DNA of 64,000 nucleotides from a virus (Duplodnaviria > Caudoviricetes): positions 14,065 through 78,064 of IMG/VR virus record IMGVR_UViG_2700989080_000001; one strand, written 5' to 3'. The translations under genes and the position numbers were made by a program. This document shows, in pieces, positions 51 to 28,722 of this stretch; position 1 is the first letter of the stretch, and each line of letters starts with the position of its first letter. The notes below the pieces were generated by a model. The model saw only the letters and a list, made by a program, of their open reading frames with translations. It did no database searches and was not told the origin of the DNA.

Positions 51-1663
51 GTGACAAGCAGACGTGGTGCATCGTAGCTCTTCCCGAAGAAGAAAGCACT
101 GTGTGGCGGGAATCCAGCGAAAAGGTTCCGCACATGACGCTTCTCTTCTTGGGTGAACAGGATGACCCCAAGAAGGCTGAGGAGATTGCCACTTTCCTTC
201 AGCATGCAGTAAACACCAGCCTGACCAAGTTCTCGATGAGCGTCAAGGAGCGGGGTGTTCTCGGAGAAGAGGATGCCGATGTTCTATTCTTCGACCAGAA
301 GTCTTTGCCGAAGCAGCTTGTGGAATTCCGCAACTTCCTTCTGAAGGATGCGACAATTCGGTCGTGCTATGATTCGGCTTTCCAGTACCCGTCATGGACG
401 CCCCATCTCACTATGGGATATCCGAAGACGCCGGCGAAGAAGACCGACGATCATTACCCGGTTCGAACCGTGTACTTCGATCGAATCGCTTTGTGGGTCA
501 TGGATTACGATGGACCAACTTTCGATCTCGATTGGGAGCACGGAGACTACTACTCCGACCCCGAAATGGCTTCAGGAGAAATGGCAATGAGCGGTATGCC
601 GGCCCCGAGCAACTTCCGTCATCTTGGCGTGGGCGGTAAGCACACTCCTTCTCGCGATCCGCTTCAGACAGCGCTGGTTCCTGCAGCAAAGCGGGCTGAG
701 CGTTCCGCAATCGATATTGCGAATAGCGGAAGCTACATTCAGCACTATGCTTCTGGTAAGCGGTTCGACGATCCGTCCGACCCGGTTTCGCAGCGCTATA
801 TTCGAGCGAACCAGCACGCATTCCTTGAGCATCTGAACAAGGTTGCTGGCGGCACGAAGTTCGAGCAGGAGAATCGACGGTATGACATCAGCACCACGCC
901 TGACGGCGATTGGGTCTTGTCGACCATTGATCTTCTGACACATTCGGGCCTCGTCGAGACTCGTATTCGTCCCGTCACTGACGACCGCGGTCGCATTTAC
1001 AAGTACGACCTGGTTTCCGATGGCCTCGGTCAGGATGACGTTCACGGCGCCATGATGCACTACGGCATCAAGGGAATGAAGTGGGGCGTTCGTCGTAAGA
1101 GCGGTTCCGATGGAACTGTTGGCGGAAGCTCTGGCGGAACTCCTTCCAAGAGGCAGCTCAAGAAGCAGTTTCGGGAGGAAGCCAAGGCCGAAGTCGCCAA
1201 GTCCAAGCAGGACTCGAAGATTGCAAAGCTCAAGACCGACGCCCTCACCAAGGAGCAGGATCGCCGAGAGAGTTTCACTCGACCGGTCACTCCAGACGCT
1301 AGGGTTGCGGCTTCGGGTCGAAAGCGGTCTGAGAAGCACGGTACCGACGCGCTCAGCAACAAGGAGCTCAAGGACCTCGTCGAGCGAATGAATCTCGAGC
1401 AGCAGTACGCAAATCTTCAGGCTAACGGTAAGTCGAAGACTGCTCGACAGGCTGGGCGAGAGTACGTTGGCGACATCATCAAGGATGTCGGGCGAGAGCT
1501 GGCGATGGATGCGCTCAAGTTCGCCGCAACAGAAGGTGTCAAGTACGCCTTCAATCAGGGTCGAACGTCTGCTAGTACTGCTCGAGATCGTCGTCGAGCT
1601 AGCGCTAACGCTCAGCGTCTTCCGCAGCTTCAGCTCGAAGGCCGACGTCAGCTAGGTAGATAG
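47..1663 (+). CDS. 2H phosphoesterase (LigT/Acb1-like) fused to an internal HYG-tagged basic domain
   Basis: Two HxT motifs (PHMTLLF, PHLTMGY); MHYGIKGMKWG at nt 1055-1087. Confidence 0.75.
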   Translation: MSDKQTWCIVALPEEESTVWRESSEKVPHMTLLFLGEQDDPKKAEEIATFLQHAVNTSLTKFSMSVKERGVLGEEDADVLFFDQKSLPKQLVEFRNFLLKDATIRSCYDSAFQYPSWTPHLTMGYPKTPAKKTDDHYPVRTVYFDRIALWVMDYDGPTFDLDWEHGDYYSDPEMASGEMAMSGMPAPSNFRHLGVGGKHTPSRDPLQTALVPAAKRAERSAIDIANSGSYIQHYASGKRFDDPSDPVSQRYIRANQHAFLEHLNKVAGGTKFEQENRRYDISTTPDGDWVLSTIDLLTHSGLVETRIRPVTDDRGRIYKYDLVSDGLGQDDVHGAMMHYGIKGMKWGVRRKSGSDGTVGGSSGGTPSKRQLKKQFREEAKAEVAKSKQDSKIAKLKTDALTKEQDRRESFTRPVTPDARVAASGRKRSEKHGTDALSNKELKDLVERMNLEQQYANLQANGKSKTARQAGREYVGDIIKDVGRELAMDALKFAATEGVKYAFNQGRTSASTARDRRRASANAQRLPQLQLEGRRQLGR

Positions 1664-1679
1664 GGAAAGGTAATTTGCG

Positions 1680-3425
1680 ATGGGGTTGTCGAACACCGCA
1701 GTTCCGATTTACTACGGAAAGTTCCGTGAAGCGGTGCTCAATGGAGAGATTCCGGTAAACCGAGAGATCTCTATGGAGATGAATCGCATCGACGACCTCA
1801 TCGCAAATGACAACATCTATTACGATGACCAGGCCGTCGAAGGATTCATTCGCTATTGCGAAAACGAGATGACCCTGACTGATGGTTCAGATCTTCATCT
1901 TTTGGATTCGTTCAAACTTTGGGCCGAACAGATCTTCGGTTGGTACTACTTCGTCGAACGAAGTGTCTACGAACCTTTCGAAGACAATCACGGTGGGCGG
2001 TATGTCAACAAGGTTGTGAAGAAGCGACTGATCACGAAGCAGTACCTGATCGTTGCCCGAGGCGCAGCCAAGTCACTCTACGAGTCTCTTCTCCAGAGTT
2101 ACTTCCTCAACGTCGACACGCAGACCACTCACCAGATCACTACCTCCCCGACCATGAAACAGTCCGAGGAAGTGATGGCTCCATTCCGAACTGCGATCAC
2201 TCGTGCAAGAGGACCGCTGTTCGAGTTCCTTACCGAGGGTTCTATGCAGAACACCACGGGTAATAGGTTCAATAGGCAAAAACTGGCGTCAACCAAGAAG
2301 GGTATCGAGAACTTCTTGACTGGCTCCATTCTAGAAGTTCGCCCGATGTCCATCAACAAGCTTCAGGGTCTTCGACCCAAGGTCTCCACGGTGGACGAGT
2401 GGCTGTCCGGCGACATCCGCGAGGACGTCATCGGTGCTATCGAGCAGGGTGCATCCAAGCTTGACGACTACTTGATTGTGGCTGTCAGTTCAGAGGGCAC
2501 TGTTCGAAACGGCTCGGGCGACACTATCAAAATGGAACTTGCAGACATCCTTAAGGGTGAGTATTCTGCACCCCACGTCTCCATCTGGCATTACAAGTTG
2601 GACAATCTCGAAGAGGTTGCTCGACCTGAGATGTGGTTGAAGGCAAACCCCAACCTCGGTAAGACCGTAACTTACGAAACTTACCAGTTGGATGTAGAAC
2701 GAGCTGAGAAAGCACCTGCATCTCGAAACGATATCTTGGCTAAGCGATTCGGAATCCCTATGGAGGGTTACACCTACTTCTTCACTTACGAAGAGACGAT
2801 TCCTCATCGTCGTCAAAGCTTCTGGCGCCAGCCTTGTGCTCTAGGCGCTGACCTTTCGCAGGGTGACGACTTCTGTGCGTTCACTTTCTTCTTCCCGCTT
2901 CGTAACGGGAAGTTCGGAGTCAAGACTCGCAGCTACATCACCGAACTTACGTTGATGAAGTTGCCTGGCGCTCTCCGACACAAGTACGACGAGTTCGTTG
3001 CTGAAGGCAGCTTGCACGTCATGCCCGGCACTATCTTGGAGATGATGGACGTCTATGACGACCTCGACAATCATATCCAAGACTGCGAGTACGATGTCCG
3101 AGCTTTGGGCTTCGACCCGTACAACGCAAAAGAGTTCGTTGCCCGCTGGGAAGCTGAGAACGGACCATTCGGCATCGAGAAGGTTATCCAGGGTTCCAAG
3201 ACCGAATCGGTTCCTCTGGGTGAGCTCAAGATTCTGAGTGAAGAGCGTTGTCTGATCTTCGACGAGAGCCTGATGTCTTTCACGATGGGTAACGCCATCA
3301 CTCTGGAAGACACGAATGGTAACCGAAAGCTTCTCAAGAAGCGACAGGAAGAGAAGATCGATAACGTCGCAGCCATGATGGATGCTTACATCGCCTACAA
3401 GGCGAACAAGGACGCATTCAACTAA
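1680..3425 (+). CDS. terL: Terminase large subunit
   Basis: Walker A-like VARGAAKS, Walker B TVDE, nuclease motifs GADLS..D and KIDNVAA. Confidence 0.93.
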   Translation: MGLSNTAVPIYYGKFREAVLNGEIPVNREISMEMNRIDDLIANDNIYYDDQAVEGFIRYCENEMTLTDGSDLHLLDSFKLWAEQIFGWYYFVERSVYEPFEDNHGGRYVNKVVKKRLITKQYLIVARGAAKSLYESLLQSYFLNVDTQTTHQITTSPTMKQSEEVMAPFRTAITRARGPLFEFLTEGSMQNTTGNRFNRQKLASTKKGIENFLTGSILEVRPMSINKLQGLRPKVSTVDEWLSGDIREDVIGAIEQGASKLDDYLIVAVSSEGTVRNGSGDTIKMELADILKGEYSAPHVSIWHYKLDNLEEVARPEMWLKANPNLGKTVTYETYQLDVERAEKAPASRNDILAKRFGIPMEGYTYFFTYEETIPHRRQSFWRQPCALGADLSQGDDFCAFTFFFPLRNGKFGVKTRSYITELTLMKLPGALRHKYDEFVAEGSLHVMPGTILEMMDVYDDLDNHIQDCEYDVRALGFDPYNAKEFVARWEAENGPFGIEKVIQGSKTESVPLGELKILSEERCLIFDESLMSFTMGNAITLEDTNGNRKLLKKRQEEKIDNVAAMMDAYIAYKANKDAFN

Positions 3426-3443
3426 TCGAGAAAGGTGTCTCCA

Positions 3444-3584
3444 ATGTCTGATTTGGGATACTCCGCAATCAAGAGAAGCCCTGAAAAGCATCTCTTTGCT
3501 TTCGCTCTTTCGAGCCTACCCAACCCCGACGACGTTGTAATTGACGGCGACAGCAGTGAAGGAGAGATCGATGGAAACGCTTGA
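3444..3584 (+). CDS. Small hypothetical protein (46 aa)
   Basis: RBS GAAAGG before ATG; fills the gap; below ORF-track cutoff. Confidence 0.45.
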   Translation: MSDLGYSAIKRSPEKHLFAFALSSLPNPDDVVIDGDSSEGEIDGNA

Positions 3585-3942
3585 TGCTGAGGACTTCCTT
3601 GCTCACTACGGTGTTAAGGGGATGAAGTGGGGCCAGACTCGCTCCAAGAGTGATCTGGTCAAGGCTCGCGCTGCTGGTCGTCGCGAGTTCGGTTCAAATC
3701 TCAAGGATCGCTACACCAAGACCGGCAAGTATGGTCAAACGAAGATCAAGAAGACCAAGGCTGTCGGAACTGTCGCCGATATTATGCTTACCGGCGGCAT
3801 GTACACCGGAGTTCAGATTGCACGATCTGGCGGCTTTACTCGAGGACAGTCTGCAGTCATCGGCATGATCACTGGTCCTGTCGGCGCCACGGTTGCAAGC
3901 GAGATTCGAGTTCGTACTGTCACCAGCCGGGATGCTCGCTAA
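3571..3942 (+). CDS. HYG-tag protein 1 (putative internal head protein)
   Basis: AAGGAG RBS; EDFLAHYGVKGMKWG; two hydrophobic segments. Confidence 0.8.
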   Translation: METLDAEDFLAHYGVKGMKWGQTRSKSDLVKARAAGRREFGSNLKDRYTKTGKYGQTKIKKTKAVGTVADIMLTGGMYTGVQIARSGGFTRGQSAVIGMITGPVGATVASEIRVRTVTSRDAR

Positions 3943-3963
3943 GCTTTCGAGGGAGTCATTCCA

Positions 3964-4800
3964 ATGAGTAACGAAGTGGACAACTTCCTTGCTCACTACG
4001 GTGTCAAGGGAATGAAGTGGGGTGTCACAAAAGATCAACATCGCGAGTACAAAGAAGTTGCTTCTCGTGACACCACTAACATGGTCAAGCGTGCTGGTTC
4101 GACAGTGCAGATGACTCGCTATTTCTCTCAGGGCGGCACTCTGAAGAAGCAGCAGAAGTACACGAAGGATTGGTACGACAAACTCGAAGGCGGCAAGGAA
4201 TTCATCGAAAAGGGTGCTTCTCTGAATCGCGTTGTTCGAGGTGTCGATGACAGAGCCCTCGCCGGGCGCTTGTATGTCTCAAGTCTGAAGAGTGACAACG
4301 AGATGTACAAGGCTGTCATTCCTGCCGTTCAAAAGAAGTTCGCTTTTGGTCAGAAGCAGTACCACTCGGTTTACCAGGTGGAGCTCGAAACCAAGAAGCG
4401 ATTGGCGATGCCGTCTCAGAAGGAGCGTGTCGACGCCTTCATCGAAACCATTCAAACGCCTACTGGCCGAGACTGGATGAAGAAGAACGGCTACAAGCGC
4501 GAGATCGATGAGCTTAACGCCAAGGAGATGGGGCTTAAGGCATACAAGAAGTTCAACAAGTATGCCGGAGACCAGGGCTCTAAGATGAACGACGCTTACT
4601 TCAACAAACTCAAGTCTCGCGGCTATGATGCTCTCATCGATGACAACGATGCGGGCATTTGGAGTAAGAAGCCGATGATCCTGCTGTCGCCGAGTAGTAC
4701 GGTCAAAGTCAAGAGTGTTCGTCAGCTTACCGCCGACGAGATCAATCAGGCTCAGCGAAACGTTCTCAAGGACCGTGACTTCAAAGAGAGGAGGTCGTGA
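3964..4800 (+). CDS. HYG-tag protein 2, possible ADP-ribosyltransferase-fold domain
   Basis: DNFLAHYGVKGMKWG; RLYVS...GYDALIDDND domain shared with 5785..6858. Confidence 0.75.
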   Translation: MSNEVDNFLAHYGVKGMKWGVTKDQHREYKEVASRDTTNMVKRAGSTVQMTRYFSQGGTLKKQQKYTKDWYDKLEGGKEFIEKGASLNRVVRGVDDRALAGRLYVSSLKSDNEMYKAVIPAVQKKFAFGQKQYHSVYQVELETKKRLAMPSQKERVDAFIETIQTPTGRDWMKKNGYKREIDELNAKEMGLKAYKKFNKYAGDQGSKMNDAYFNKLKSRGYDALIDDNDAGIWSKKPMILLSPSSTVKVKSVRQLTADEINQAQRNVLKDRDFKERRS

Positions 4801-5783
4801 TGAGCAATAGCGCAGATGACTTCCTCGCCCACTATGGTGTCAAGGGAATGAAGTGGGGCGTAAAGCGCTCACAGGCTCAACTAGATCGAGCTGCTGGCGG
4901 TCGTCAAAATGGGAGTGGCGGAGCATCTGATTCTGCACCCAAGCAGGGGATGAGTCGTAAGAAGAAGATCGCTATCGGTGCTGGAGTTGTTGGTGGTGTA
5001 GCCCTGGTTGCTCTAGGCGCCTATGCCGTCAACAAGCAGATCGATACGAACAAACTTCGAACTCTTGGCGAGATGCGAAAGCAGGCCGAAGCAAATTTGG
5101 CCGGCAAGAAGGCTGCTCAAGCGCAGATCCAAGCGTTTGGTAAGAAGTCGAAGTGGGAGCTTGCGTCGGAACTTCCGGCAAAACCCAAAAAGTCGCCCAT
5201 GACTCAGGCCGAGTACAAAGCTCAGGCGCAGGCCAAGGTTCAGGCTCGGACAAACGAACTGATCGCCAAGTCGGGATCGAAGCCGATGGGTAAGGCGGCG
5301 CGTAGAAAGGCTGCCGAACAGCAAGCTATTCAGGAACACTTCAACAAGTTCGCCAAGAAGTCGTTCTTGGATCTCGCCACCGAACTTCCTTCCGCCCCGA
5401 AGCAGCCTAAGCTGTCTCGAAAGGAAGCGAATCGTCGCACCAACGAGGCGGTTCGAAAGGCAACTGAAACCCAGCAGATCAACAACAGGTTGAATGCTGT
5501 TCGAGGAATCCTTGACAAGTCGGGGTCGACTCCGGCACGAAAGGCGAGTTCCTCGTACACCAATCGGGACCGAAAGAGCGACACCAAGCTCTATGGTAAC
5601 GAAGGTGCTGCGAGAATTCAGAAGCGGGTTGCCAAGGGGACGCTCCTTTCCGAAGCTCGACGCAAGGAAGCCACTCGACAGTACGGCGTTAAAGCTGCAC
5701 GAGTTGGGTTGAACATCAACTCGGCAGGGCGTCGTGAGTCGAAGGACTACGAGCGTCTTCGGAAGCAAGCCGGAAGGGGTTAG
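4797..5783 (+). CDS. HYG-tag protein 3, very basic, one hydrophobic helix
   Basis: DDFLAHYGVKGMKWG; GAGGAGG RBS; internal repeat KKS..ELA.ELP..PK. Confidence 0.8.
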   Translation: MMSNSADDFLAHYGVKGMKWGVKRSQAQLDRAAGGRQNGSGGASDSAPKQGMSRKKKIAIGAGVVGGVALVALGAYAVNKQIDTNKLRTLGEMRKQAEANLAGKKAAQAQIQAFGKKSKWELASELPAKPKKSPMTQAEYKAQAQAKVQARTNELIAKSGSKPMGKAARRKAAEQQAIQEHFNKFAKKSFLDLATELPSAPKQPKLSRKEANRRTNEAVRKATETQQINNRLNAVRGILDKSGSTPARKASSSYTNRDRKSDTKLYGNEGAARIQKRVAKGTLLSEARRKEATRQYGVKAARVGLNINSAGRRESKDYERLRKQAGRG

Positions 5784-5784
5784 G

Positions 5785-6858
5785 GTGACTGTCGTTGAAG
5801 TTGACAACTTCCTAGCCCACTACGGTGTCAAAGGAATGAAGTGGGGCGTTATTCGCGACAGAGATCGTGGATCTAGCTCTAGTTCTTCCGAGCCAAAGCC
5901 TGCTGGTCGTCGACAAGTTGCTCTAGAAGCAAAGTACGTTCAGAAGGGACATTCGCTGGAAGACGCTCAGCAGAAAGCTGCCAGGCGAGCGAAGGTTCAA
6001 AAAGTTCTCTTGGTTGCTGGAGCAGTAACTCTTGCCGGCACTGCCGCTTACGTCGGACACAAAGAGTATGGAAAGCGTTTCACCGAGATCAGTCTTAAAG
6101 CCGGTACCGAACTCAAGTACATCAATGCAACAGGCCCAAACACTGATCTCAATCGACGTCTTTACACGACATTCAACGAAGCTGATACTAAAAAGTATCG
6201 AGGTATGTTGGCTAAACAGCTTCAGAAGAATAAAAGTGGGACGACGATCTACGAAACCGTTCTGACCGCCAAACAGGACATCAAAGCTCCTTCGCATAAA
6301 CAGGCTGAGCAGGTTTTCAAAGACCTCGTTAAGTCTGGAGCTATGGACGTAAAGTTCTTTGGTAGGAACCAAACGTACAAGGAATTCAACGGAGATCTTG
6401 TGCGAGGTAATACTCCAGAAGCGAAAACCTTCTACGATGCTCTCAAGAAAAAGGGTTTCAACGCTGTCTTGGATTCAAACGATCAGTTTGTTTCTGGTTA
6501 TAACACGAAACATCCGTTGATCCTCTTTAACGCTGCTTCGAGCACTGTCAAGACTGGTGAGTCAGTGGTGAACCAGAAGACTATCGATGGTTTGTATAAT
6601 CGCCAAGTGGCTGGGGTCATGGCTAGACAGTTCGCCCCTACGGTAGCTATGGGTGCGGCAGCTGTTGGTGCTCATCGATACATCGAGTCCAAGAGCAAGT
6701 ATGCGACCGTTAACAAGTACATGGCCGAACATCCGAACACGAAGCGATCGCCTGCTGAGATCTACGCGAGTCTTCAGGTGCAACCGAACGGTCTATACGA
6801 GGTTCCTGACCTTACCGCTGTAAGCAAGCCTCCGAAGAAAGGCGGTTCCAAGAAGTGA
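5785..6858 (+). CDS. HYG-tag protein 4, paralog of 3964..4800
   Basis: DNFLAHYGVKGMKWG; RLYTT...GFNAVLDSND; GTG start chosen after upstream stop. Confidence 0.75.
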   Translation: MTVVEVDNFLAHYGVKGMKWGVIRDRDRGSSSSSSEPKPAGRRQVALEAKYVQKGHSLEDAQQKAARRAKVQKVLLVAGAVTLAGTAAYVGHKEYGKRFTEISLKAGTELKYINATGPNTDLNRRLYTTFNEADTKKYRGMLAKQLQKNKSGTTIYETVLTAKQDIKAPSHKQAEQVFKDLVKSGAMDVKFFGRNQTYKEFNGDLVRGNTPEAKTFYDALKKKGFNAVLDSNDQFVSGYNTKHPLILFNAASSTVKTGESVVNQKTIDGLYNRQVAGVMARQFAPTVAMGAAAVGAHRYIESKSKYATVNKYMAEHPNTKRSPAEIYASLQVQPNGLYEVPDLTAVSKPPKKGGSKK

Positions 6859-6977
6859 AGCTCCTACTCAAGATTCTTGATGTTCTGATCGGTAACCGCC
6901 TAGATCGTCCCGAAGTTCGAGATCTCTATCTGAGGGATCATCCGGAAGAGCGTCAAAATGGGAGTAGCAATGGATGA
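6855..6977 (+). CDS. Small hypothetical protein (40 aa)
   Basis: GTGA overlap with upstream stop; fills the gap. Confidence 0.35.
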   Translation: MKLLLKILDVLIGNRLDRPEVRDLYLRDHPEERQNGSSNG

Positions 6978-7347
6978 TTCTATTGACAACTTCCTAGCTC
7001 ACTATGGCGTCAAGGGCATGAAGTGGGGTCAACGCAAGAAGCACAAGGAGTCCAAGAAAGAATACAAGGCGAGAACCAAGAAGGAACTCGCCGAGTACAA
7101 TGAGAAAAAGGCCTTCTCTATTGCTTCTCGCGCCGCGGTTGGTAAAGAGAACGTGATCGTGAAGACAAAGTTCGGCGGCGACACACACGGCAGCATTGTA
7201 ACTGGAGAACAGTTCTATCAGCAGCTTGCTAGAGGTCGCGCTTTCGATATTCGAATCACTGAGATTTACGCTACTCGTAAAGCCGAAGGCGAACAGTTCA
7301 CTCGCGCAGCTCTCTATCCTGCATACCAGAAGTCCGAACGGAGGTGA
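6970..7347 (+). CDS. HYG-tag protein 5
   Basis: GGGAG RBS; DNFLAHYGVKGMKWG. Confidence 0.8.
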   Translation: MDDSIDNFLAHYGVKGMKWGQRKKHKESKKEYKARTKKELAEYNEKKAFSIASRAAVGKENVIVKTKFGGDTHGSIVTGEQFYQQLARGRAFDIRITEIYATRKAEGEQFTRAALYPAYQKSERR

Positions 7348-7893
7348 ATGATGGACGAAGATGTTGAGGATTTTCTAGCTCACTATGGTGTCAAAGGAAT
7401 GAAGTGGGGTCAACGTAAGAACAACCTCGCCGGAGTTTCAGTCAAGACGAACCGTGATGCTCGTAAGGATGCACAGGAGTTCGCAAGAGCAAAGATGTTC
7501 TACGGAACCGGTGCTGGTAATCGACGAAAGCTCATCAAGACTACTGTCGAATCCAAGTCAAAGGATCCGAGTTACAAGGCAGCTTTCGATCATCATCTCG
7601 CCAACCAGGACATGGGGAAGCACGCTTCGAAGGCTAAGACTGAGCGGCGTCGCAAGGATGTCAGCAGCAAGACGACCAAGACGGCTCGTGGCGTTCATCG
7701 TCAGCTGACCGGAGGTTTCGGTAGCGTTTCTATGGCTTCGGCTCTTATCGCCGGCGCCTACATCGGTGCTCGAAAGACCGGTATCGATCAGGTCATCATT
7801 AACTCTGCGAAACAGAAGATGAACGACTTGTCGAGCAAGCAAAACGATAAGAAGAACGTCAACGACTGGATGAAGAAGAACGGGTTCCTCTGA
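7348..7893 (+). CDS. HYG-tag protein 6
   Basis: GGAGG RBS; EDFLAHYGVKGMKWG. Confidence 0.8.
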   Translation: MMDEDVEDFLAHYGVKGMKWGQRKNNLAGVSVKTNRDARKDAQEFARAKMFYGTGAGNRRKLIKTTVESKSKDPSYKAAFDHHLANQDMGKHASKAKTERRRKDVSSKTTKTARGVHRQLTGGFGSVSMASALIAGAYIGARKTGIDQVIINSAKQKMNDLSSKQNDKKNVNDWMKKNGFL

Positions 7894-7934: not shown

Positions 7935-9275
7935 ATGGCTAGCGTCTCTAAAAAGCTGATGCATGCTTACAACGTTTTTACCGCAGTGGATCATCGTGAA
8001 ACCTCGTCAAGCGAGTTTTACGGAATGTCTACTTACGGTAGTCGTCCAGACCGTGTGAGAACACCGAACGTGATGGCTGCACGATCGATTATCTCATCGA
8101 TCTATACTCGACTCGGAATCGATATTGCTTCTGTTCAGCTTCGACATGTTAAGTTGGACGATCAGGGTCGATTCTTGGAAGACATCAACAGCGGATTGAA
8201 CAACTGTCTCACGGTCGAGGCCAATCTCGATCAGGGTTCTCGAGACTTTCGTCAGGACATCGCTATGACACTCTGCTCCAAGGGTTATTTGGCGATCGTT
8301 CCTATCGAGACTTCGCTCAATCCGAAGATCTCCGGCTCGTATGACATTCAAACCATGCGAGTTGGCGAAATCACGGCTTGGTATCCGAAGCACGTTCGTG
8401 TCAGTCTCTATAACGAGGCTGTTGGTCGGCGCGACGAGATCGTGGTCGAAAAGAAGCACGTTGCTGTCGTAACGAACCCTCTATATTCGATCATGAATGA
8501 GCCGAACTCGACTCTTCAACGTCTCGTCAGGAAACTGAGCCTCCTTGATTCGGTGGATGAAGCGTCTGCGTCGGGGAAACTTGACATGATCATTCAGCTT
8601 CCGTATGTCGTCAAGTCCGATGCTCGAAAGAAGCAGGCGGAACAGCGACGGTCCGACCTTGAGCAGCAGCTCACGGGAAGCAAGTACGGAATCGCTTACA
8701 CGGACGGTACCGAGAAGATCACGCAGCTCAACCGTCCTGTCGAGAACAATCTCATGGGTCAGATCACATATCTCACCGGAGAGCTGTACGCGCAGCTTGG
8801 TTTGACGGCTGAGGTTATGAACGGTACTGCCGATGAGAAGACGATGCTGAACTATTGGAATCGAACCATCGAACCAATGGTCGCCTCCATCACCGAAGAG
8901 ATGCATCGCACGTTCTTGACTAAGACCGCTCGAACTCAGAGGCAAGCGGTTCGATATTTCCGAGACCCTTTCCGTCTGGTTCCCATCGAGAACATCGCTG
9001 AGATCGCGGACAAGTTCACTCGAAATGAGATCCTTACCTCTAACGAGATTCGTCAGGTGGTCGGCTTCAGGCCGGCCGGCGATCCCAAGGCTGACCAGCT
9101 AGTCAATAGCAACATGCCTCAGGCAATCACGGGTGCTTCTGGTGAAACTCCTGCTCCGTCTCAGACTCCGTCGGCCGACCCCAACGAAGAGAAGACTTCG
9201 ACGTTGGTGAATAGCGGACTGGATGCTCTGAACTCCCAGCTTGACGGTATATTTGACGACCTGGGAGGAGAATGA
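7935..9275 (+). CDS. Portal protein
   Basis: 446 aa between terminase and capsid; HK97-like C-terminus LTSNEIRQVVG; AAAGGAGG RBS. Confidence 0.88.
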   Translation: MASVSKKLMHAYNVFTAVDHRETSSSEFYGMSTYGSRPDRVRTPNVMAARSIISSIYTRLGIDIASVQLRHVKLDDQGRFLEDINSGLNNCLTVEANLDQGSRDFRQDIAMTLCSKGYLAIVPIETSLNPKISGSYDIQTMRVGEITAWYPKHVRVSLYNEAVGRRDEIVVEKKHVAVVTNPLYSIMNEPNSTLQRLVRKLSLLDSVDEASASGKLDMIIQLPYVVKSDARKKQAEQRRSDLEQQLTGSKYGIAYTDGTEKITQLNRPVENNLMGQITYLTGELYAQLGLTAEVMNGTADEKTMLNYWNRTIEPMVASITEEMHRTFLTKTARTQRQAVRYFRDPFRLVPIENIAEIADKFTRNEILTSNEIRQVVGFRPAGDPKADQLVNSNMPQAITGASGETPAPSQTPSADPNEEKTSTLVNSGLDALNSQLDGIFDDLGGE

Positions 9276-9276
9276 G

Positions 9277-9927
9277 TTGGCGTCTCGATCCGAGCTCTTC
9301 CTTGAGGCGGTGTTTCAAGATCGTCGCACTCTGATCCACGAATACGACCCCGTCAAGGCCCGCGAGTATTATTTGCGTACTCGAGAGCTCAAGGGTCGTC
9401 AGCCAGCCCAGGCCGAAGAGCCTGAGTCGGTTCGTAACGCTCGGCAAGCAGCTGCTGCGGCTGAAGAAGCTAAGCAGAAAGTTGAAGCTGAGCGTAAGTC
9501 TCGTCGACAAGAACTGAAAGCTAAACTTGCTGATTTGGAGGCTCGACTCAAAAAGTTGAACGCCGCCATCAAACAAGCTAAGGCTGCAGCGATGCGTCGA
9601 GCAGGGGTCTCTGAAGAAACCCTGAACCGAATGATCACCCAAGAGGTGAAGAGTCCCGGTAGTTCCAAAGGCATGAAAGACGAAGCCAAGGACTCGAAGG
9701 ATTCGAAAGACTCGTCCGACTCTTCTGATGACAAACCGAAAACTGCCGCGCAAAAACGAAAAGATGCCAAGGCGGCAAAAGAGCGGTATGAAGAAGAGAA
9801 AGATAAGAATCCCGAAGCTAATGACGGCGATGCTGAGCTTCAAGAACTACAGGACAAAGTCGATTCGACTGCTGAGCGAATCGAGAAACTTCAAAAGAGA
9901 GTTCAAGCCATCGCCAGGATTGGCTGA
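9277..9927 (+). CDS. Coiled-coil head-module protein (LIH|EYDPVKAREYY N-terminus)
   Basis: GGAGGAG RBS before TTG; charged coiled coil. Confidence 0.65.
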   Translation: MASRSELFLEAVFQDRRTLIHEYDPVKAREYYLRTRELKGRQPAQAEEPESVRNARQAAAAAEEAKQKVEAERKSRRQELKAKLADLEARLKKLNAAIKQAKAAAMRRAGVSEETLNRMITQEVKSPGSSKGMKDEAKDSKDSKDSSDSSDDKPKTAAQKRKDAKAAKERYEEEKDKNPEANDGDAELQELQDKVDSTAERIEKLQKRVQAIARIG

Positions 9928-10078: not shown

Positions 10079-12226
10079 ATGACCCACATGCAACCTGATT
10101 TCAGCGGGTACGCGACCAAGGCGAATCTCAGGTGCTCCGATGGTCGGACCATCCTGCCTGATGCTTTCAAGCACATGGACGGCATGCAGGTTCCTCTCGT
10201 CTGGCAGCACGCCCACAACGAACCGACCAATGTGCTCGGTCATGCCCTCCTAGAGGCCCGTGACGGAAGCATGTACTGCTACGGGTTCTTCAACGACACC
10301 GATGCCGGCAAGCAGGCAAAGGGTCTAGTCGCTCACGGCGACATCAACGCACTTTCGATTTACGCCAATAAGTTGGAAGAGCACAACAAGGCGGTCAAGC
10401 ACGGTCAGATCCGCGAAGTAAGTCTCGTGTTGGCCGGAGCAAATCCCGGAGCTTTGATCGACAACGTCAACATTGCTCATGGCGATGGGTCGATCACCAC
10501 TCTGGATGGTGAAGCCCTTATTTACACCGACGAACTGCTCGAGCTCACACACTCAGAAGAGGACAACATGACTATCGCACATGCTGAAGACGAGGATCTC
10601 ACCGTTCAGGACGTCTTCGAGACGATGAATGAGCAGCAGCAGGAAGTTGTTCATTTCCTGGTCGGAGAGGCCCTCGCTGGAGCTTCCGCAAGTCACGCCG
10701 CCGGCGATGATGAGGAAGACGACGGCAAGGACAAGACCGTTCAGGACATCTTCGAGAGCATGACCGAAGAGCAGAAGAACGTCGTCTTCTTCATGGTCGG
10801 ACAGGCCCTCGAAGAAGCCGGTAAGGGCTCCGATAAGCCTGCGGACAACAAGTCCGATGACAAGTCCGACGACAAGACCGCCAAGCACGCAGATACCTCC
10901 TCGGAAGGAAACACCATCATGAGCCACAACGTCTTCGAGCGCGCTGCCCTTTCGGCCGATGACACCAGCAAGACCCTCAGCCACTCGGAGCTCGTTGAGG
11001 CCACGTCGAGCATCTTCTCGGCCGCTGCCCGCACCGGTTCCGTCAAGGAGGCCGCTGAGGAGTACGCCCTCAAGCACGGCATCGAGGACATCGACGTCCT
11101 GTTCCCGGATGCCAAGGCTGTCACCACCACGCCTGAGTTCATCAAGCGTCGCACCGAGTGGGTTTCCGAGGTCATGAGCGCCTCGCGCCACACCCCGTTC
11201 TCGCGGATCAAGAGCCTGACGGCCAACCTGACCTTCGACGACGCCCGTGCCAAGGGCTACGTCAAGGGCAACATGAAGAAGGAAGAGTTCTTCCGGGTCG
11301 CCAAGCGAGTCACCACCCCGCAGACCGTCTACAAGAAGCAGAAGCTGGATCGGGACGATGTCCTGGACATCACCGACTTCGATGTGGTCGCGTGGCTCAA
11401 GGGTGAGATGCGCCTCATGCTCGACGAGGAGATCGCTCGCGCGGTTCTGATCGGCGACGGTCGCTCGGCTGAGGACGAGGACAAGATCTCGGAGGAGCAC
11501 ATCCGTCCGATCGCCAACGACAGCGACCTCTTCGTCACCTACGTCAACGTCGACCTGAGCGGTGGCGCTGCCGACAAGATCGTCGACGCCCTGACCCTGC
11601 AGCGTCGTCACTACCGTGGATCGGGCAACCCGACCTTCTTCACCAGCGAGACCGTTCTCGCTCAGATGCTGCTGCACAAGGATTCGCTGGGTCGTCGCAT
11701 CTACGCGACCGTCGCGGATCTCGCTGCTGCTCTGCGTGTTTCGAAGATCACCACGGTCGAGATCATGGATCAGCCGTCGGTGGACGTCGTTGGCATCATG
11801 GTCAACATGCAGGACTACACCATCGGTGCGGACAAGGGCGGCGACGTCTCGCTGTTCGACGACTTCGACATCGACTACAACCAGCACAAGTACCTCATCG
11901 AGTCCCGTCTGTCGGGCGCCCTCACGCGTCCCAAGTCGGCTCTCGTGGTCAAGGCTGTTGCCAAGTCCTCCACGCTGGTCACCCCCGAGGCTCCGGAGTG
12001 GGATGACGAGGCCAAGACCGTGACGGTTCCGACCGTTACCGGTGTCGTCTACAAGAACAAGAAGACGAACGCCACCCTGACCACGGCTTCGCCCGTCACC
12101 CTGAACGCGGGTGAAGAGCTGCACGTGATCGCCCTGCCGGCCTCGACGAGCTACTACCTGGCCTCGACCGCTGAGGACGAGTTCCTCTTCGATTACGAGG
12201 ATGGCATGCTCGGCGGCGCATTCTGA
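10079..12226 (+). CDS. Prohead protease + scaffold + major capsid protein fusion with C-terminal Ig-like domain
   Basis: HK97-type protease motifs (PLVWQH, LSI, EVSLV..GANP), acidic scaffold, capsid region with strongly biased codons. Confidence 0.9.
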   Translation: MTHMQPDFSGYATKANLRCSDGRTILPDAFKHMDGMQVPLVWQHAHNEPTNVLGHALLEARDGSMYCYGFFNDTDAGKQAKGLVAHGDINALSIYANKLEEHNKAVKHGQIREVSLVLAGANPGALIDNVNIAHGDGSITTLDGEALIYTDELLELTHSEEDNMTIAHAEDEDLTVQDVFETMNEQQQEVVHFLVGEALAGASASHAAGDDEEDDGKDKTVQDIFESMTEEQKNVVFFMVGQALEEAGKGSDKPADNKSDDKSDDKTAKHADTSSEGNTIMSHNVFERAALSADDTSKTLSHSELVEATSSIFSAAARTGSVKEAAEEYALKHGIEDIDVLFPDAKAVTTTPEFIKRRTEWVSEVMSASRHTPFSRIKSLTANLTFDDARAKGYVKGNMKKEEFFRVAKRVTTPQTVYKKQKLDRDDVLDITDFDVVAWLKGEMRLMLDEEIARAVLIGDGRSAEDEDKISEEHIRPIANDSDLFVTYVNVDLSGGAADKIVDALTLQRRHYRGSGNPTFFTSETVLAQMLLHKDSLGRRIYATVADLAAALRVSKITTVEIMDQPSVDVVGIMVNMQDYTIGADKGGDVSLFDDFDIDYNQHKYLIESRLSGALTRPKSALVVKAVAKSSTLVTPEAPEWDDEAKTVTVPTVTGVVYKNKKTNATLTTASPVTLNAGEELHVIALPASTSYYLASTAEDEFLFDYEDGMLGGAF

Positions 12227-17594: not shown

Positions 17595-17975
17595 ATGTCA
17601 ATCTCATTCCAAACCTCTGGTAGCTTCCAGAACACCGAGCGGCGTCTTAAGCTCATGTCCAAGCCGGAGATCGGCAGGATCTTGAACACTTATGGCGCCC
17701 TCGGTGTTGCCGCCTTGAAGGCTTACACACCGGTTGACTCGTCTGCGACCGCCAATGCGTGGTACCACAAAGTGACCAACAAAGGTGGCTCTTGGGAGCT
17801 GTCTTGGCACAATCAAAATGGGAGTGCTGACACTCCAATCGCCATCATGCTTCAGTACGGCCACGGCACCGGTACTGGCGGATACGTTGCGGGGCGTGAC
17901 TATATCAACCCCGCAATTCGACCCATCTTCGACGCGATTAAATCCGCTGTGTGGAAAGAGGTGACACGTAGATGA
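17595..17975 (+). CDS. HK97 gp10-like tail completion protein
   Basis: TPVDS..TA..W, LQYGHGT, YINPA motifs. Confidence 0.7.
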   Translation: MSISFQTSGSFQNTERRLKLMSKPEIGRILNTYGALGVAALKAYTPVDSSATANAWYHKVTNKGGSWELSWHNQNGSADTPIAIMLQYGHGTGTGGYVAGRDYINPAIRPIFDAIKSAVWKEVTRR

Positions 17976-20900
17976 GCCTCATCGAGGACCTCATTGTCGG
18001 AATGAAGTTCGACAATAAGCAGTTCGAAGCTGGCGCCAGAATCACTATGGCGACTTTGGCCCAGCTCAAGGGCAGCATGAACTTCACCGGTGCGAGCAAG
18101 GGCATCGACGATGTTCAAGCTTCGGTCAACCGCTTTTCGATGGACAGCGCCGGAGCGGGCGTTGACACCTTCAGCGCTAAGTTCGTTGCTTTGTCGACTG
18201 TCGCTATCACAGCGTTGTCGAACATTACTAACCGGGCTATTGATGCCGGAATCAACATCGCCAAGGCTCTTACTGTCACACCCATCAAGGATGGTTTTGA
18301 TGAGTACGAGCTGAAGATGGGTTCTATTCAGACCATCATGGCCAATACGGCGAAAGAGTATGGGGATGACAAGGCTGCTGGTCTGCGGAATGTTACCGCC
18401 AGCCTTGACGAGCTGAATACTTACGCCGACAAGACCATTTACAACTTCGGCGACATGACCAAGAACATCGGTCTGTTCACCAACGCTGGCATCGGCGTCA
18501 AAGACGCTACCACGATGATTAAAGGCTTCTCTAACGAAGCCGCCGCATCAGGCACCAGCGCTCAGGGTGCTGCTGGCGCTGCTTACCAGCTCTCCCAGGC
18601 TCTTTCTGCTGGTCAGATTACCCTCATGGACTGGCGCTCACTGACTAACGTCGGTATGGGTAACAAGAACATGCAGGAAGGCATTGTCGATATTGCTCAG
18701 GCTATGGGCGAGCTCGACAAGGCTGGTGTCACCTCGAAGTCCGTTCTCGAGGACTTCAACGGCTCACTTGAGAAGAAGTGGCTCAAGGCCGACGTTATGC
18801 AGAACTACCTGAAGATTCAGGCGGGCGAGCTTAACGCTGAGCAGATGAAGACCCTTGGTCTTACCGACGAACAGATCAGCAAATTCCAAAGGCAATCAGA
18901 AACGGCCTTTGAGGCTGCAACAAAGGTTCGAACCTGGACCCAGCTTGTCGGAACGATCAAGGAAGGCGTCGGGTCTTCCTGGTCAGAGACCGCCGACCTC
19001 ATCATTGGCGACTTCGATCAGGCCACCGAGCTCTTCACCGGCATCATGGACAAGATCGAACCCATTATCGGTGGCATGGGCGATGCTCGTAACAAGCTGC
19101 TCGAGGGTTGGGCTAAGGATGGCGGTCGAGACGCTTTCGTCGCCAGCATATTCAATGTTATCGACGCTCTTACGTCGGTCATTAAGCCGATCAAGGAAGC
19201 GTTCCAAAACATCTTCCCGCCGGCCACATCGGCGACTCTTATTTCCATGACCGTCGCGATCAAGAACTTCACAGAGAAGCTCAAGATCGGTGGCGAAACG
19301 GCTGACAAGCTGAAGCGAACCTTCTCTGGCGTATTCGCCATTTTGGGTATCGGTTGGGAGATCGTCAAGGGTGTCGCCAGCGTATTCGGTAAGCTCTTCG
19401 GTGCTGTCGGTTCTGGTAGCGGCGGCTTCTTGTCGCTCACAGCCAAGATCGGTGATTTCCTCACCAAGATTCATGCGGGCATCAAGAGTGGTGGACTCTT
19501 CACAAAGATATTCGAAGTTCTCGGTACGGTTCTCGCCGTTCCGATTAAGATCTTCGGAAACCTGACTGAGGCCGTCGCAAACTTCTTTGGCGCTCTAGGT
19601 AATCTCGGTGGAGCCATTGGTCAGGTCTACGGCATTCTCGCCAAGGGTGACTTCAAGGGTGGTCCTTTCTCCGAGGACTCGAAGATTGTCGATATTCTCT
19701 TCAGGATTCGAGAAGCATTCGAGGTTGTTGGTTCTGCAGTAAGTCAGTTCTGGAACATCCTTGCCAAGGGTGACTTCGTCAGTGGTGTGTTTGGCGAAGA
19801 CTCGGCGATCGTTGACGGACTCTTCAAGTTCCGCGACATGATCAAAGATTTCTTCTCCCCGGGCAACCTGACCAAGATGCTCGGTATTGGTGCTGGCGGC
19901 GGTCTTGCTGTTGCCATTGGCATGCTCCTGAAGAAGGGCATCAAGTTCGGCGTCGACGATTCCGAAGGTGGAATGTTCGACACGATCAAGGGTATGTTTG
20001 CGGGAATCAAGGGCACGTTCGAAAGTGTTTCGGGCGTTCTTGACAGCTTGACCGGTTCTCTTACGGCCATGCAGAACAACATCAAGGCGACAGTTCTCCT
20101 CAAGATTGCTGCTGCCGTTGGTCTGTTGGCACTTTCTGTCAAGCTGCTCTCGACGATTGATGCCGGTGATCTTGCCAAGTCGATGGCTGCTATTGCCACT
20201 GGTTTTGGTATGCTGCTCGGCGCCATGACGGTCATGTCGAAGATTTCCGGTGCCGGTGGCTTGGCTACATTCCCTGCCATCGCAGCGGGAATGATGCTCA
20301 TGTCCGGCGCAATCCTTATTCTCGCCGCAGCCGCCAAGGTTTTTGCGTCAATGGAGTGGGACGAGATTCTAAGAGGTCTCGTTGGCGTCGGTGTCACGAT
20401 GGGTCTGCTTGTCGGTGCGGCATACGGTCTCGGTAAAGCCGAGGGTCCGATGCTTCGTGCTGGTCTTGCTATGATTCCGTTGGCTATCGGCATTCGAATC
20501 TTGGCTACGGCAATCAAGGCTATGGGTGATATTCAGTGGCCTGAGCTCATCAGAGGTCTGACTGGACTCACCGTGTCGTTGGCTGCGATCACTCTGGCGT
20601 TGCGCTACATGCCGGAGAACATGCCTGCGATCGGTTTGGGTCTCACCCTTGTCGGCGCCGGCTTGTTGGTTATTGCTACGGCAGTCAAGCAGATGGGCAA
20701 TACCGACACCGATGTCCTGGTCAAGGGACTCATCGGTATATCTGCAGCGCTCGCGGCTATTACGTTGGCGCTAAGGTTCATGCCGAAGAACATGCCGTCC
20801 ATCGGCTTCGGTCTCATCATGGTTGCTGGTGCTCTCCAGCTTATTACTGGTGCGATCAAGACGATGGGCGGCATGGAGTGGGAAGAGCTGATTAGAGGGC

Positions 20901-26858: not shown

Positions 26859-26901
26859 TCGCAAAAATTACACAGCCTATAATGAGACCCCTATGAAAGG
26901 A
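26859..26901 (+). promoter_or_regulatory. Phage promoter + leader + RBS, copy 1
   Basis: TCGCA-N14-TATAAT-GAGACCCCTATGAAAGGA. Confidence 0.85.
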
Positions 26902-26907
26902 ACTGTT

Positions 26908-27207
26908 ATGTTCAACTCCAAGCCCTCTGACTCCAAGGTTGGACTCGAGAACGCCATCAATTCTCTGCTCGAAGAGATGTCACATTTGAATGGTGATTCC
27001 GAAGAATACGCTAAGATGACGGAACAGCTGGACGTGCTCTACAAGCTCAAGGAAGTCGACCACAAGGTCGAAGCCGGAAAGCGAGTGAGCGCTGACACGC
27101 TGGCCATCATCGCAGGCAACGTTCTCGGAATCGCCATGATCGTGGGACACGAACGAGTGAGCATTCTGACGTCGAAGGCCCTACCCTTGCTGATGAAGCT
27201 GAAGTAA
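26908..27207 (+). CDS. Hypothetical protein with C-terminal hydrophobic segment
   Basis: ATG after GAAAGGA. Confidence 0.75.
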   Translation: MFNSKPSDSKVGLENAINSLLEEMSHLNGDSEEYAKMTEQLDVLYKLKEVDHKVEAGKRVSADTLAIIAGNVLGIAMIVGHERVSILTSKALPLLMKLK

Positions 27208-27231
27208 CAAACACCCCCACAGGTGCCCCCG

Positions 27232-27285
27232 ACTGAGGAGGCTTGTAAGGACGAGATCCATATCCTTGCAAGCCTTCTCAGTTTT
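27232..27285 (+). terminator. Intrinsic terminator
   Basis: ACTGAGGAGGCTTGTAAGGA/TCCTTGCAAGCCTTCTCAGT stem + TTT. Confidence 0.75.
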
Positions 27286-27352
27286 CGTCGCATCTAAAAC
27301 ACGGCTTCTCAATTTTTCCCGGGGAGGAATTTTGGGATTAAGTCTTCAAGAA

Positions 27353-27395
27353 TCGCATATTTTACACACCCTATAATGAGACCCCTATGAAAGGA
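27353..27395 (+). promoter_or_regulatory. Phage promoter copy 2
   Basis: TCGCA-N14-TATAAT-GAGACCCCTATGAAAGGA. Confidence 0.85.
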
Positions 27396-27404
27396 AAGAT
27401 CACT

Positions 27405-27677
27405 ATGGAAACCCGTGCCTACTACTATGGTGACGGAACTGACAACGTCGTACAGTTGACAGAAGCTCAGGCTAACGCCAGTAACAAGGCCATGTTCTAC
27501 CCCGTGGAAGAAGAGAAGGACTCGACAGGAGAAACACAAATCCTGGTCAAGACCAATCTGACCCGCGAGGAGATCGTCCATTACAACGAAGCCGCAGACA
27601 TTCTGAACGTGTACCTCGAAACTCACACCGTCACATACAACGACATGGAGCAACCAATGCTTCGCCCAGTCAAGTAA
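27405..27677 (+). CDS. Hypothetical acidic protein
   Basis: Promoter/RBS upstream, hairpin downstream. Confidence 0.75.
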   Translation: METRAYYYGDGTDNVVQLTEAQANASNKAMFYPVEEEKDSTGETQILVKTNLTREEIVHYNEAADILNVYLETHTVTYNDMEQPMLRPVK

Positions 27678-27735
27678 GTCTCCGCCGCACTGAGATGCCA
27701 CCCAGGCATTTCAGTTTTCCTACAGAGGAGTTAAC

Positions 27736-27951
27736 GTGGTTGACAAGATATTCGCTGCTACGAACGTTATGTCGTCCTTCGCCGACCCAGAGTACTTGTT
27801 CGGAGTTTCTGTTGGCGTCGCCGCACTTCACCTATATTACAGAACGAAGTACAAAGCGATGCTGACCGCTCATGATCTGGATCGACTTCGTAAGGGTCTC
27901 CCAGTCAAGATCGATACTTCCCGCGGACCCATCTATATTCGTGAGGTTTAG
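27736..27951 (+). CDS. Small membrane protein
   Basis: GAGGAG RBS; one hydrophobic helix. Confidence 0.65.
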   Translation: MVDKIFAATNVMSSFADPEYLFGVSVGVAALHLYYRTKYKAMLTAHDLDRLRKGLPVKIDTSRGPIYIREV

Positions 27952-27954
27952 ACG

Positions 27955-27998
27955 TCGCACAGAATACACGCCCTATAATGAAACCCTCGACGAAAGGA
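27955..27998 (+). promoter_or_regulatory. Phage promoter copy 3
   Basis: TCGCA-N14-TATAAT-GAAACCCTCGACGAAAGGA. Confidence 0.85.
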
Positions 27999-28004
27999 CC
28001 AATC

Positions 28005-28178
28005 ATGAACGACAAGATTGCTGCCGTCAAGAATCACGTCAAGAAGCACCGCGCGAAGTATGCGGTTGCAGGAACGCTAGTCGTCTGCACCGTCATCCAT
28101 ATTCGCATCGTGAGCAACTTGAACAGGTTCCTCGACGACCACGATCTGATGGACATGTACTACACCAACGGAGAGTAA
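28005..28178 (+). CDS. Small membrane protein
   Basis: Cassette gene; one hydrophobic helix. Confidence 0.7.
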   Translation: MNDKIAAVKNHVKKHRAKYAVAGTLVVCTVIHIRIVSNLNRFLDDHDLMDMYYTNGE

Positions 28179-28226
28179 CAACGAACTGGAATGCCAATCT
28201 ACACACGGCATTTCAGTTTTTGCCTT

Positions 28227-28269
28227 TCGCAAGAATTACACGCCTTATAATGAGACCCCTACGAAAGGA
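28227..28269 (+). promoter_or_regulatory. Phage promoter copy 4
   Basis: TCGCA-N14-TATAAT-GAGACCCCTACGAAAGGA. Confidence 0.85.
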
Positions 28270-28277
28270 CGCCCATC

Positions 28278-28556
28278 ATGAACAACAAGATCGCTATCGC
28301 TGCCCTTGCTGTTGGAGCACTTGCCGTCGCTGGGATCGCCACAATCAACTGCTTGCAGATTACTCGCGAAGAGGAAGCCAAGCGTGCCGAGTTCAAACGA
28401 AATGAAGAACTCAACGTCCACGCCGTCACCCTTGCCGCGATGCGAATCAGCGAACGTTTGGAAGCTGGCGATCACTTCGCGTCGGTGAATGACCTGACAG
28501 ACAACTTCAACGAAGAGATCAAGTTCCAGAAGATTGCTGTCCGATTCGATAGCTGA
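28278..28556 (+). CDS. Small protein with N-terminal membrane anchor
   Basis: Cassette gene. Confidence 0.7.
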   Translation: MNNKIAIAALAVGALAVAGIATINCLQITREEEAKRAEFKRNEELNVHAVTLAAMRISERLEAGDHFASVNDLTDNFNEEIKFQKIAVRFDS

Positions 28557-28603
28557 ATCGAAAGCCTAAACCCACATGCTACACGGGTTTTAGGTTTTAC
28601 CAA

Positions 28604-28628: not shown

Positions 28629-28630
28629 AG

Positions 28631-28718: not shown

Positions 28719-28722
28719 GCCT

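Follow-up and report, generated by a model that had tools for sequence, protein, structure and literature searches.

What is a short peptide, kept almost unchanged on otherwise different proteins, doing next to the head genes of a phage? The question is raised by the left end of a 64,000-nucleotide stretch of DNA (the window, i.e., the whole stretch analysed), which is the right-hand 64 kb of the 78,064-base virus record IMGVR_UViG_2700989080_000001. The genes there are arranged in the order 2H phosphoesterase, terminase large subunit (TerL), six open reading frames (ORFs), portal, a coiled-coil ORF, and a fusion of an S78 prohead protease with the capsid protein. All six ORFs between TerL and portal begin with an acidic leader of 10-11 residues followed by FLAHYGVKGMKWG. 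The nearest named relative is Rhodococcus phage ReqiPepy6, with 88.7% nucleotide identity across 39% of the first 12 kb. An earlier note on this DNA proposed that the shared peptide (the tag, from here on) is a modular address that loads effectors and a phage RNA polymerase (RNAP) into the head. The results presented below lead us to a related answer: the tag is probably a portable, intrinsically unstructured peptide that docks cargo proteins into the procapsid for co-ejection.

A six-frame regular-expression scan found FLAHYGVKGMKWG in frame with His codons at positions 3604, 3994, 4830, 5818, 7000, and 7381; a seventh copy, MMHYGIKGMKWG, at 1058 within the 2H ORF (residues 335-346, the His being residue 338 of 538); and a variant, YLAHYGILRRSGRYPWG, at 60771 in the opening of the RNAP ORF. 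All the positions given for tagged genes in the earlier note were thus confirmed. With starts supported by ribosome-binding sites, all six TerL-portal ORFs read M-x4-5-D-[DN]-FLAHYGVKGMKWG, and the His is residue 11 or 12. An extra LAHYG, at 24540, stands without the remaining motif and looks like a chance occurrence. The consensus, [acidic leader]-L-x-H-[YHF]-G-[VI]-x-G-[MQ]-[KRH]-W-G-x-[RK], is that of DUF7211 (PF23847, 25 positions), a motif listed in Pfam with its function unassigned. The seven full copies scored 35.2-56.1 bits, versus a cut-off of 27. The full record contained eight PF23847 matches, seven of them above the cut-off, and no match above the cut-off was found in 14 control genomes.

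Thirteen core residues are identical across the six N-terminal copies. In each of the 15 pairs of copies, 3-7 of 39 nucleotides differ, and every difference is synonymous, with no replacement. Because the differences between copies are all synonymous, the constraint must act on the peptide and not on the DNA, as the earlier note had held; a DNA-level or RNA-level repeat as the cause of the similarity is ruled out by the same comparison. We conclude that selection acts on the tag at the protein level and that the tag is a module carried by unrelated proteins. Models obtained with AlphaFold2 (AF2) for two carriers both show the tag as an unstructured extension, with a predicted local confidence (pLDDT) of ca. 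50-54 versus ca. 90-95 in the bodies. The 17 residues that follow W-G, a flexible basic linker to the body, are 74% polar or disorder-promoting and have a net charge of +2.8, and the leaders are net negative in 79% of 133 cases. A sequence search found no tag among PDB sequences.

Since both internal (2H residue 338) and tandem copies (2-5 in polyproteins) exist, an N-terminal position is, on sequence grounds, dispensable for the tag. The same copies invite a different explanation, namely that the tag is chiefly a recognition or processing site of the fused S78 prohead protease, which would cut polyproteins and precursors, with targeting being a by-product of enzyme-substrate binding. Proteins with 2-5 tags placed at module borders (tag-body-tag-body) are common, all members of the lineage have the S78 domain joined to their capsid protein, and the targeting peptide of phage T4 is removed by a prohead protease. 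However, the protease-capsid fusion, which the same protease must cut, contains no tag-like motif, and within the window the tag profile matches no ORF other than the seven tagged ones. The tag's near-invariant residues, at least 13 of them, also far exceed what known prohead protease sites need. Finally, no result places a cut between LAH and YG, where the earlier note had expected one; the processing region of the fusion lacks a tag-like motif, and the internal and tandem copies speak against that cut as well. We consider the processing-site explanation unlikely.

The tag is widespread. A 30-residue tag query had 888 matches, distributed over 224 of the 50,697 phage records; phages of Arthrobacter (95 records), Gordonia (55), and Streptomyces (54) came first, followed by those of Curtobacterium, Microbacterium, Rhodococcus, Lactococcus, and Bifidobacterium. 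Most tagged records carry 3-9 copies; ReqiPepy6 has eight copies above the cut-off. Nine genes of Arthrobacter phage Qui are tagged, of which gp15 precedes TerL and gp18-gp25 lie in the interval from TerL to portal; in the curated gene models, all these tags are at residues 1-26. Streptomyces phage Bilo has a single carrier, gp6, organized as tag-GNAT-tag and located directly before TerL, and Lactococcus phage 1706 also has one carrier, ORF7, which contains two copies and is labelled "structural protein". Among 1.84 billion representative proteins, a profile of 145 distinct tag windows matched 53,549 at E <= 0.001 and 9,575 at E <= 1e-10; the best-matching proteins carry 3-5 tags and are up to 1,569 residues long. 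The tag belongs to one HK97-type siphophage lineage, comprising 1706-like and ReqiPepy6-like phages and actinophage clusters AU, AM, BI, DJ, and CC. A full-text literature search found no paper with the name DUF7211, and the motif letters appeared only in irrelevant papers. The accessible portions of papers on Arthrobacter (PMC5513430), Giantsbane, BI-cluster, and Gordonia (PMC4563357) phages mention neither the tag nor virion proteomics, and a literature search for ORF7 and the structural proteins of phage 1706 yielded nothing beyond unrelated virology.

The genomic context of the tag was surveyed in 81 sources, i.e., 80 portal-anchored viral loci and the window. There were 173 tag matches in 64 of the 81 sources, every one on the portal strand. 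Seventy sources included the TerL end as well as the portal start; the two genes were adjacent in 19 and separated by a gap of more than 300 nucleotides in 51. At least one tagged ORF was found in 47 of these 51 gaps, tagged ORFs making up a median of 92% of the gap, and in 36 of the 70 sources a tagged ORF lay just upstream of TerL. In bacterial genomes and metagenome-assembled genomes (mostly Clostridia, with Actinomyces, Atopobium, Collinsella, and Saccharibacteria-labelled bins), tags were present in 66 of 66 loci. A homologue of the TerL, portal, or protease-capsid fusion of the window was at most 8 kb away in 58 of these loci, and in 30 of the 33 that were at least 12 kb long. We conclude that the tag is tied to one head module, consisting of an HK97-type TerL, a portal, and an S78 protease-capsid fusion.

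Tags of the same genome vary in concert. At 11 variable tag positions, the within-genome identity was 0.616, versus 0.463 +/- 0.011 in 2000 shuffles that ignore relatedness (43 loci; maximum 0.504). Some genomes, for example, have G-M-H-W-G tags only, others G-Q-K-W-G tags only, and still others H-W-G tags only. Because tags of one genome resemble each other, a single shared, phage-encoded partner in each phage would fit the data.

The proteins attached to the tag are diverse. Bodies were clustered after tag masking into BLAST families with composition correction, and 142 non-redundant carriers yielded 65 body families. The bodies are net positive in 95% of the 142 carriers; in the window, Lys and Arg together outnumber Asp and Glu in all six tagged ORFs and, narrowly (82 versus 76), in the whole 2H protein. 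The earlier note, which spoke of mostly unrelated basic bodies, was therefore right about charge, but two of the six ORFs, 3964-4800 and 5734-6858, are paralogues, both assigned to phrog_7502 (E 1e-108 to 1e-111). A second Pfam domain was recognized in 11 of the 142 carriers (2H in five, the papain-fold toxin domain Gln_amidase in three, GNAT in two, and P-loop in one), and in the best 54 multi-tag proteins Pfam gave GNAT four times, Gln_amidase twice, and 2H once. No MuF or portal Pfam domain was present among the 196 proteins scanned (the 142 carriers and the 54 top multi-tag proteins). The hypothesis that carriers are membrane proteins was rejected, a strongly hydrophobic 19-residue window being present in only 24 of the 142.

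The seven carriers of the window are all on the + strand. The 2H protein (47-1663), which adjoins TerL upstream, consists of a 2H phosphoesterase domain, a middle region, the internal DUF7211 tag, and a basic tail. It matched PF13563 at residues 26-151 (29.2 bits, cut-off 27) and PF23847 at residues 330-352 (nucleotides 1034-1102; 35.2 bits), and both H-x-T motifs are retained (H29-M-T and H120-L-T), which places the domain in the 2H family; the same internal-tag architecture was found in four related loci. Between TerL and portal, the first tagged gene, 3571-3942, encodes a small basic protein (PF23847, 50.8 bits) and probably starts with the ATG at 3571 downstream of AAGGAG, the longest ORF beginning with the TTG at 3541. 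It is followed by 3964-4800 (56.1 bits), the first phrog_7502 protein, and by 4800-5783 (52.4 bits), which is basic and has a single hydrophobic segment (residues 58-76). The latter matches phrog_35934 (E 2e-219) and is a homologue of ReqiPepy6 gp019, which is labelled "virion structural protein". The paralogue of 3964-4800 (51.5 bits; phrog_7502, E 4e-108) is listed as ORF 5734-6858 and probably starts with the GTG at 5785, right after the upstream stop. Next come another small basic protein, 6970-7347 (53.5 bits), and, last before portal, the basic helical protein 7351-7893 (phrog_6291, 56 bits), which has 689 homologues, none of them named. The AF2 model of the latter (89 sequences) combines an unstructured tag (pLDDT ca. 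50) with a helical core at residues 30-120 (pLDDT ca. 90), and the helical fold had no PDB match at E <= 0.001. Single-linkage clustering joined the tail of the 2H protein to 7351-7893 in one family ("family 0"); this kinship was rejected, the pairwise identity being 21% and the E value 3e-4 with the tag included, and the two bodies are treated as unrelated.

The abundance of basic bodies suggests one more explanation of the tag. Tags could bind each other or DNA and so form an inner body or condensate of basic proteins that is taken up whole, in which case one contact with the shell would suffice. Near-identical tags within a genome would suit such self-association, and proteins with several tags could cross-link the inner body. 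Yet there are phages with a single tagged protein (Streptomyces phage Bilo with gp6, and 1706 with ORF7), and the tag is without structure in both AF2 models. We regard this explanation as very unlikely.

The phrog_7502 body is the commonest one without a Pfam match. The AF2 model of the phrog_7502 protein 3964-4800 (91 sequences) had a mean pLDDT of 90.5 and a predicted template-modelling score (pTM) of 0.84; the body reached a pLDDT of ca. 95, and residues 1-20, which contain the tag, had a pLDDT of ca. 53 and no secondary structure. Foldseek matches of the model were, in order, a cyanophage A4 pre-ejectosome chain, MbcT, SAIP, ParT, and diphtheria toxin. With VIA-align, MbcT was matched with a Z score of 7.7 (also given as 7.3) and a root-mean-square deviation of 4.0 over 145 residues, and the catalytic domain of diphtheria toxin with Z scores of 6.4-6.8; 32 chains had a Z score of at least 5, and all among the matches listed were of the ADP-ribosyltransferase (ART) type. 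In a Foldseek-independent search of 48,161 chains, ten had a Z score of at least 5, all of them NAD-utilising ART/RES-type toxins or the cyanophage pre-ejectosome protein. BFVD added ART-PolyVal proteins as fold matches, and the nearest named clusters in the ESM Atlas were ART-PolyVal or the AcrIF11 ADP-ribosyltransferase (scores 0.86-0.88), which we take as a lead only. Conserved in the body are R89 (NRVVRG), Y104-V-S-S, and D226-D-N-D. The model thus assigns the phrog_7502 bodies of 3964-4800 and 5785-6858 to the ART-superfamily fold, with middling Z scores that constitute evidence at the level of the fold; because of these scores, and because no ART sequence model matches, we claim the fold and not the activity.

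Far from the head genes, the tag has a relative in a YonO/crAss-type single-subunit RNAP (60741-63461, + strand; phrog_4291, 1332 bits). The RNAP gave a Pfam RdRP match of 17.3 bits, and RdRP/YonO-like catalytic motifs are reported for its homologues in the accessible part of a preprint (bioRxiv 10.1101/842583). The N-terminus of the protein (nucleotides 60753-60812) carries a half-tag variant, EDDYLAHYGILRRSGRYPWG, and reads EDDYLAHYGILRRSGRYPWGSG. The form L-x-H-Y-G-[TIV]-x-R-x-S-G-R-Y-P-W-G-S-G is found in 46 of 49 RNAP homologues with 38-92% identity. When a profile of 145 tags was aligned by hhalign to one of 35 RNAP N-termini, the probability was 95% and the E value 3.5e-8, over only 12 columns, xDxLxHYGxxxx. 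With PF23847, the N-terminus reached 14.1 bits, versus the cut-off of 27, and was matched at model positions 5-13 only. The earlier note had counted the RNAP among the tagged proteins; this holds for the first half of the tag, and judged by its sequence the RNAP motif is a conserved relative or a mimic of a half-tag, not a member of DUF7211. Since only the first half is shared, loading of the RNAP into the head is a lead and not a finding.

The window also contains 13 same-strand copies of a 32-nucleotide intergenic motif, composed of a TCGCA box, ACAC, and then TATAAT-GAGACC, at 26859-36238, 57075-57106, and 59795-59824. A GAAAGGA ribosome site follows each copy, and then a small gene. The motif is promoter-like, its spacing between the upstream box and TATAAT being unlike that of usual sigma-70 promoters, and the repeats could be promoters for the phage's own RNAP. 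A similar 32-bp repeat is reported, in the accessible part of the source, for cluster AU Arthrobacter phages.

The RNAP, which is non-structural and encoded far from the head block and whose N-terminal motif is so well kept, could also mean that the tag acts in the infected cell. It would then be a linear motif for a conserved host hub or a phage replication or transcription factor (RNA polymerase, the ribosome, or a membrane site), to which late enzymes and the RNAP are recruited. Tagged genes without nearby head genes in eight of the 66 genomic loci and a hydrophobic segment in 24 of the 142 carriers would agree with this. The tag, however, follows one head module across host phyla (Actinomycetota, Bacillota, and Saccharibacteria-labelled metagenome-assembled genomes), and all of these hosts would need to have kept the same hub. 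Moreover, tag variants co-vary within a phage genome, which is more in line with a partner encoded by the phage than with one from the host, and tagged genes fill the TerL-portal gap in the orientation of the late genes. Action of the tag in the infected cell therefore appears quite unlikely.

We favour docking into the procapsid. During procapsid assembly, the tag would attach its carrier to a head component common to all phages of the lineage, either the portal or an inward-facing part of the protease-capsid fusion (the protease, the linker, or the inner surface), and docked proteins would become enclosed in the head; proteolytic trimming may accompany this process. Because the tagged proteins are basic, they would be expected to remain with the DNA and to leave with it at infection. 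Enzymatic cargo, here the 2H phosphoesterase and the two ART-like proteins and in relatives GNAT acetyltransferases and papain-fold deamidases, would act at the earliest stage in the host, and the half-tagged RNAP may travel in the same way. The address proposed in the earlier note is modular indeed, lies in a head-morphogenesis block, and is carried by enzyme types (ART-like, 2H, GNAT, and deamidase) that elsewhere are packaged in heads and injected; its extension to the RNAP holds for the first half of the tag only. In the accessible parts of two papers (PMC9503650, PMC5512222), packaging into the heads of other phages, for injection, is described, as a proposal or as established, for ARTs, 2H enzymes, and toxin-type domains.

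The two candidate docking partners are encoded at the right border of the tagged block and downstream of it. The left border of the block is TerL (1680-3425, + strand; PF20441, E 4e-31, and PF03354), and its right border is the portal (7935-9275, + strand; PF04860, 58.6 bits), a candidate receptor. The other candidate receptor, which is also the candidate processing enzyme, is the 715-residue fusion (10079-12226, + strand), in which the S78 prohead protease is joined via a variable linker to an HK97-type major capsid protein. When the N-terminal 200 residues were scanned alone, PF04586 matched residues 8-128 with 27.9 bits (cut-off 21), which identifies the S78 domain; TIGR01543 gave 30.1 bits in this region (10079-10678), under its cut-off of 59. 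The capsid part matched PF05065 at residues 414-625, and no close solved relative of the fusion was found in the PDB. The coiled-coil ORF after portal (9241-9927) was rejected as a universal receptor: since a homologue was found in only 19 of the 81 sources, and 1706 and Bilo lack it, it is not the universal partner of the tag.

Some further observations concern the same head genes. The linker of the fusion contains a 98-nucleotide internal duplication (10586-10683 and 10721-10818, 72% identity) that encodes a repeated helix-like unit, the only part of the linker conserved across 28 homologues; the unit may be a scaffold or docking element built into the fusion. Two related viral contigs (L079, 6183-8426, and L081, 6034-8322) have a portal ORF of ca. 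750 residues, ca. 300 above the usual, and the C-terminal extension, which has no Pfam match, may be cargo fused directly to the portal. In another source (L070, 11306-11596), a 97-residue ORF directly after portal has at its start a tag with other residues in place of W-G (…HYGVKGMRRR…), and this looks like a decayed or frameshifted copy. Elsewhere in the window, the tape measure protein (17972-23827, 1951 residues) contains tandem repeats of ca. 42 residues, with a 126-nucleotide period, in blocks at 19632-19845 and 22079-22602. A 27-nucleotide motif (AACAAGCTATATTTCGA…) occurs in five copies at 46729-49017, spaced by 315-750 nucleotides, near the starts of successive genes.

Several points weigh against docking of effector cargo into the procapsid. 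Virion support comes from database annotation of 1706 ORF7 and ReqiPepy6 gp019, and the label of gp019 is itself justified by similarity to 1706. A recognisable enzymatic domain is present in only 11 of the 142 carriers, and because most bodies lack a recognized function, the word "effector" is an extrapolation. For the commonest of these bodies, phrog_7502, no Pfam or NCBIfam ART model matches and no glutamate is invariant, so the ART match is one of fold only (Z below 8). The concerted variation of tags could result from gene conversion or recent duplication, given that the shuffles ignore relatedness. Finally, the eight genomic loci without a head gene within 8 kb include three of the 33 long ones; some tagged genes must therefore sit elsewhere in their phage, and in two of the eight loci the contig also carries the head genes, at a distance of tens of kb. 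With these points taken into account, docking into the procapsid remains the explanation that we think is probably correct.

A broader version of the docking hypothesis can be put forward tentatively, as a possibility that we ourselves doubt. DUF7211 may be a general, transplantable head-loading peptide of a very large lineage of Gram-positive siphophages, which would pack with it changeable effectors of the first minutes (ART-like, 2H, acetyltransferases, and deamidases) and, via the diverged half-tag, a YonO-type RNAP that would fire the 13 promoter-like sites preceding small genes at 26.8-36.2 kb. If a head-loading tag including the RNAP were real, these would be the first siphoviruses with a virion RNA polymerase. 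Proteins packaged in the head and co-injected decide the first minutes of infection, in counter-defence and host takeover, and to our knowledge the way they are sorted into the head is clear only in a few model phages that infect Gram-negative bacteria. If the tag is a sorting signal, tens of thousands of hypothetical proteins could be annotated as virion cargo, a large pool of candidate anti-defence enzymes would be opened in actinobacterial, lactococcal, and gut clostridial phages, and a 20-residue handle would be at hand for putting chosen or foreign proteins into phage particles. As a motif, the tag has an entry in Pfam (DUF7211); a function for it would be new, and so would the ART-like nature of a major cargo family.

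The proposed system can be compared with several known ones. In phage T4, the capsid-targeting sequence is a short N-terminal peptide on unrelated, mostly basic internal proteins (IPI-III and Alt); it is a weakly conserved, amphipathic stretch of ca. 10 residues that is removed by gp21 and targets a separate scaffolding core in a myovirus. Common to both systems is a short shared N-terminal peptide, and T4 cargo also includes an ADP-ribosyltransferase, which is injected with the DNA. The tag of the window differs in being near-invariant, longer, and also internal, and we do not claim its removal; the tagged siphophages also have no universal separate scaffold (an orf228 homologue is present in 19 of the 81 sources). 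The tail of the HK97 prohead protease and the cargo-loading peptides of encapsulins are short C-terminal peptides that dock passengers to the interior of an HK97-fold shell. They resemble the tag in the use of a short terminal peptide as a dock, and the head genes of the window are likewise HK97-type; they differ in being C-terminal and of other sequences, and binding of the tag to the shell is putative. The Dar proteins of phage P1, which are unrelated to each other, depend on an N-terminal region to enter the head and are injected to protect the DNA; they are not known to share a conserved motif, and P1 differs further in being a myovirus of Gram-negative hosts. MuF toxins and polyvalent proteins, according to the accessible parts of the papers describing them (PMC5512222, PMC9503650), likewise place diverse effectors (ART, 2H, GNAT, and deamidase-type) on a head-associated trafficking module, are encoded beside terminase and portal, and have multi-domain forms. 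Their module is a folded MuF or portal domain, whereas here it is an unstructured peptide of ca. 20 residues and the 196 proteins scanned have no MuF domain. By analogy, then, the tag system would be the siphophage, Gram-positive counterpart of the T4 capsid-targeting sequence, MuF-toxin fusions, and polyvalent proteins.

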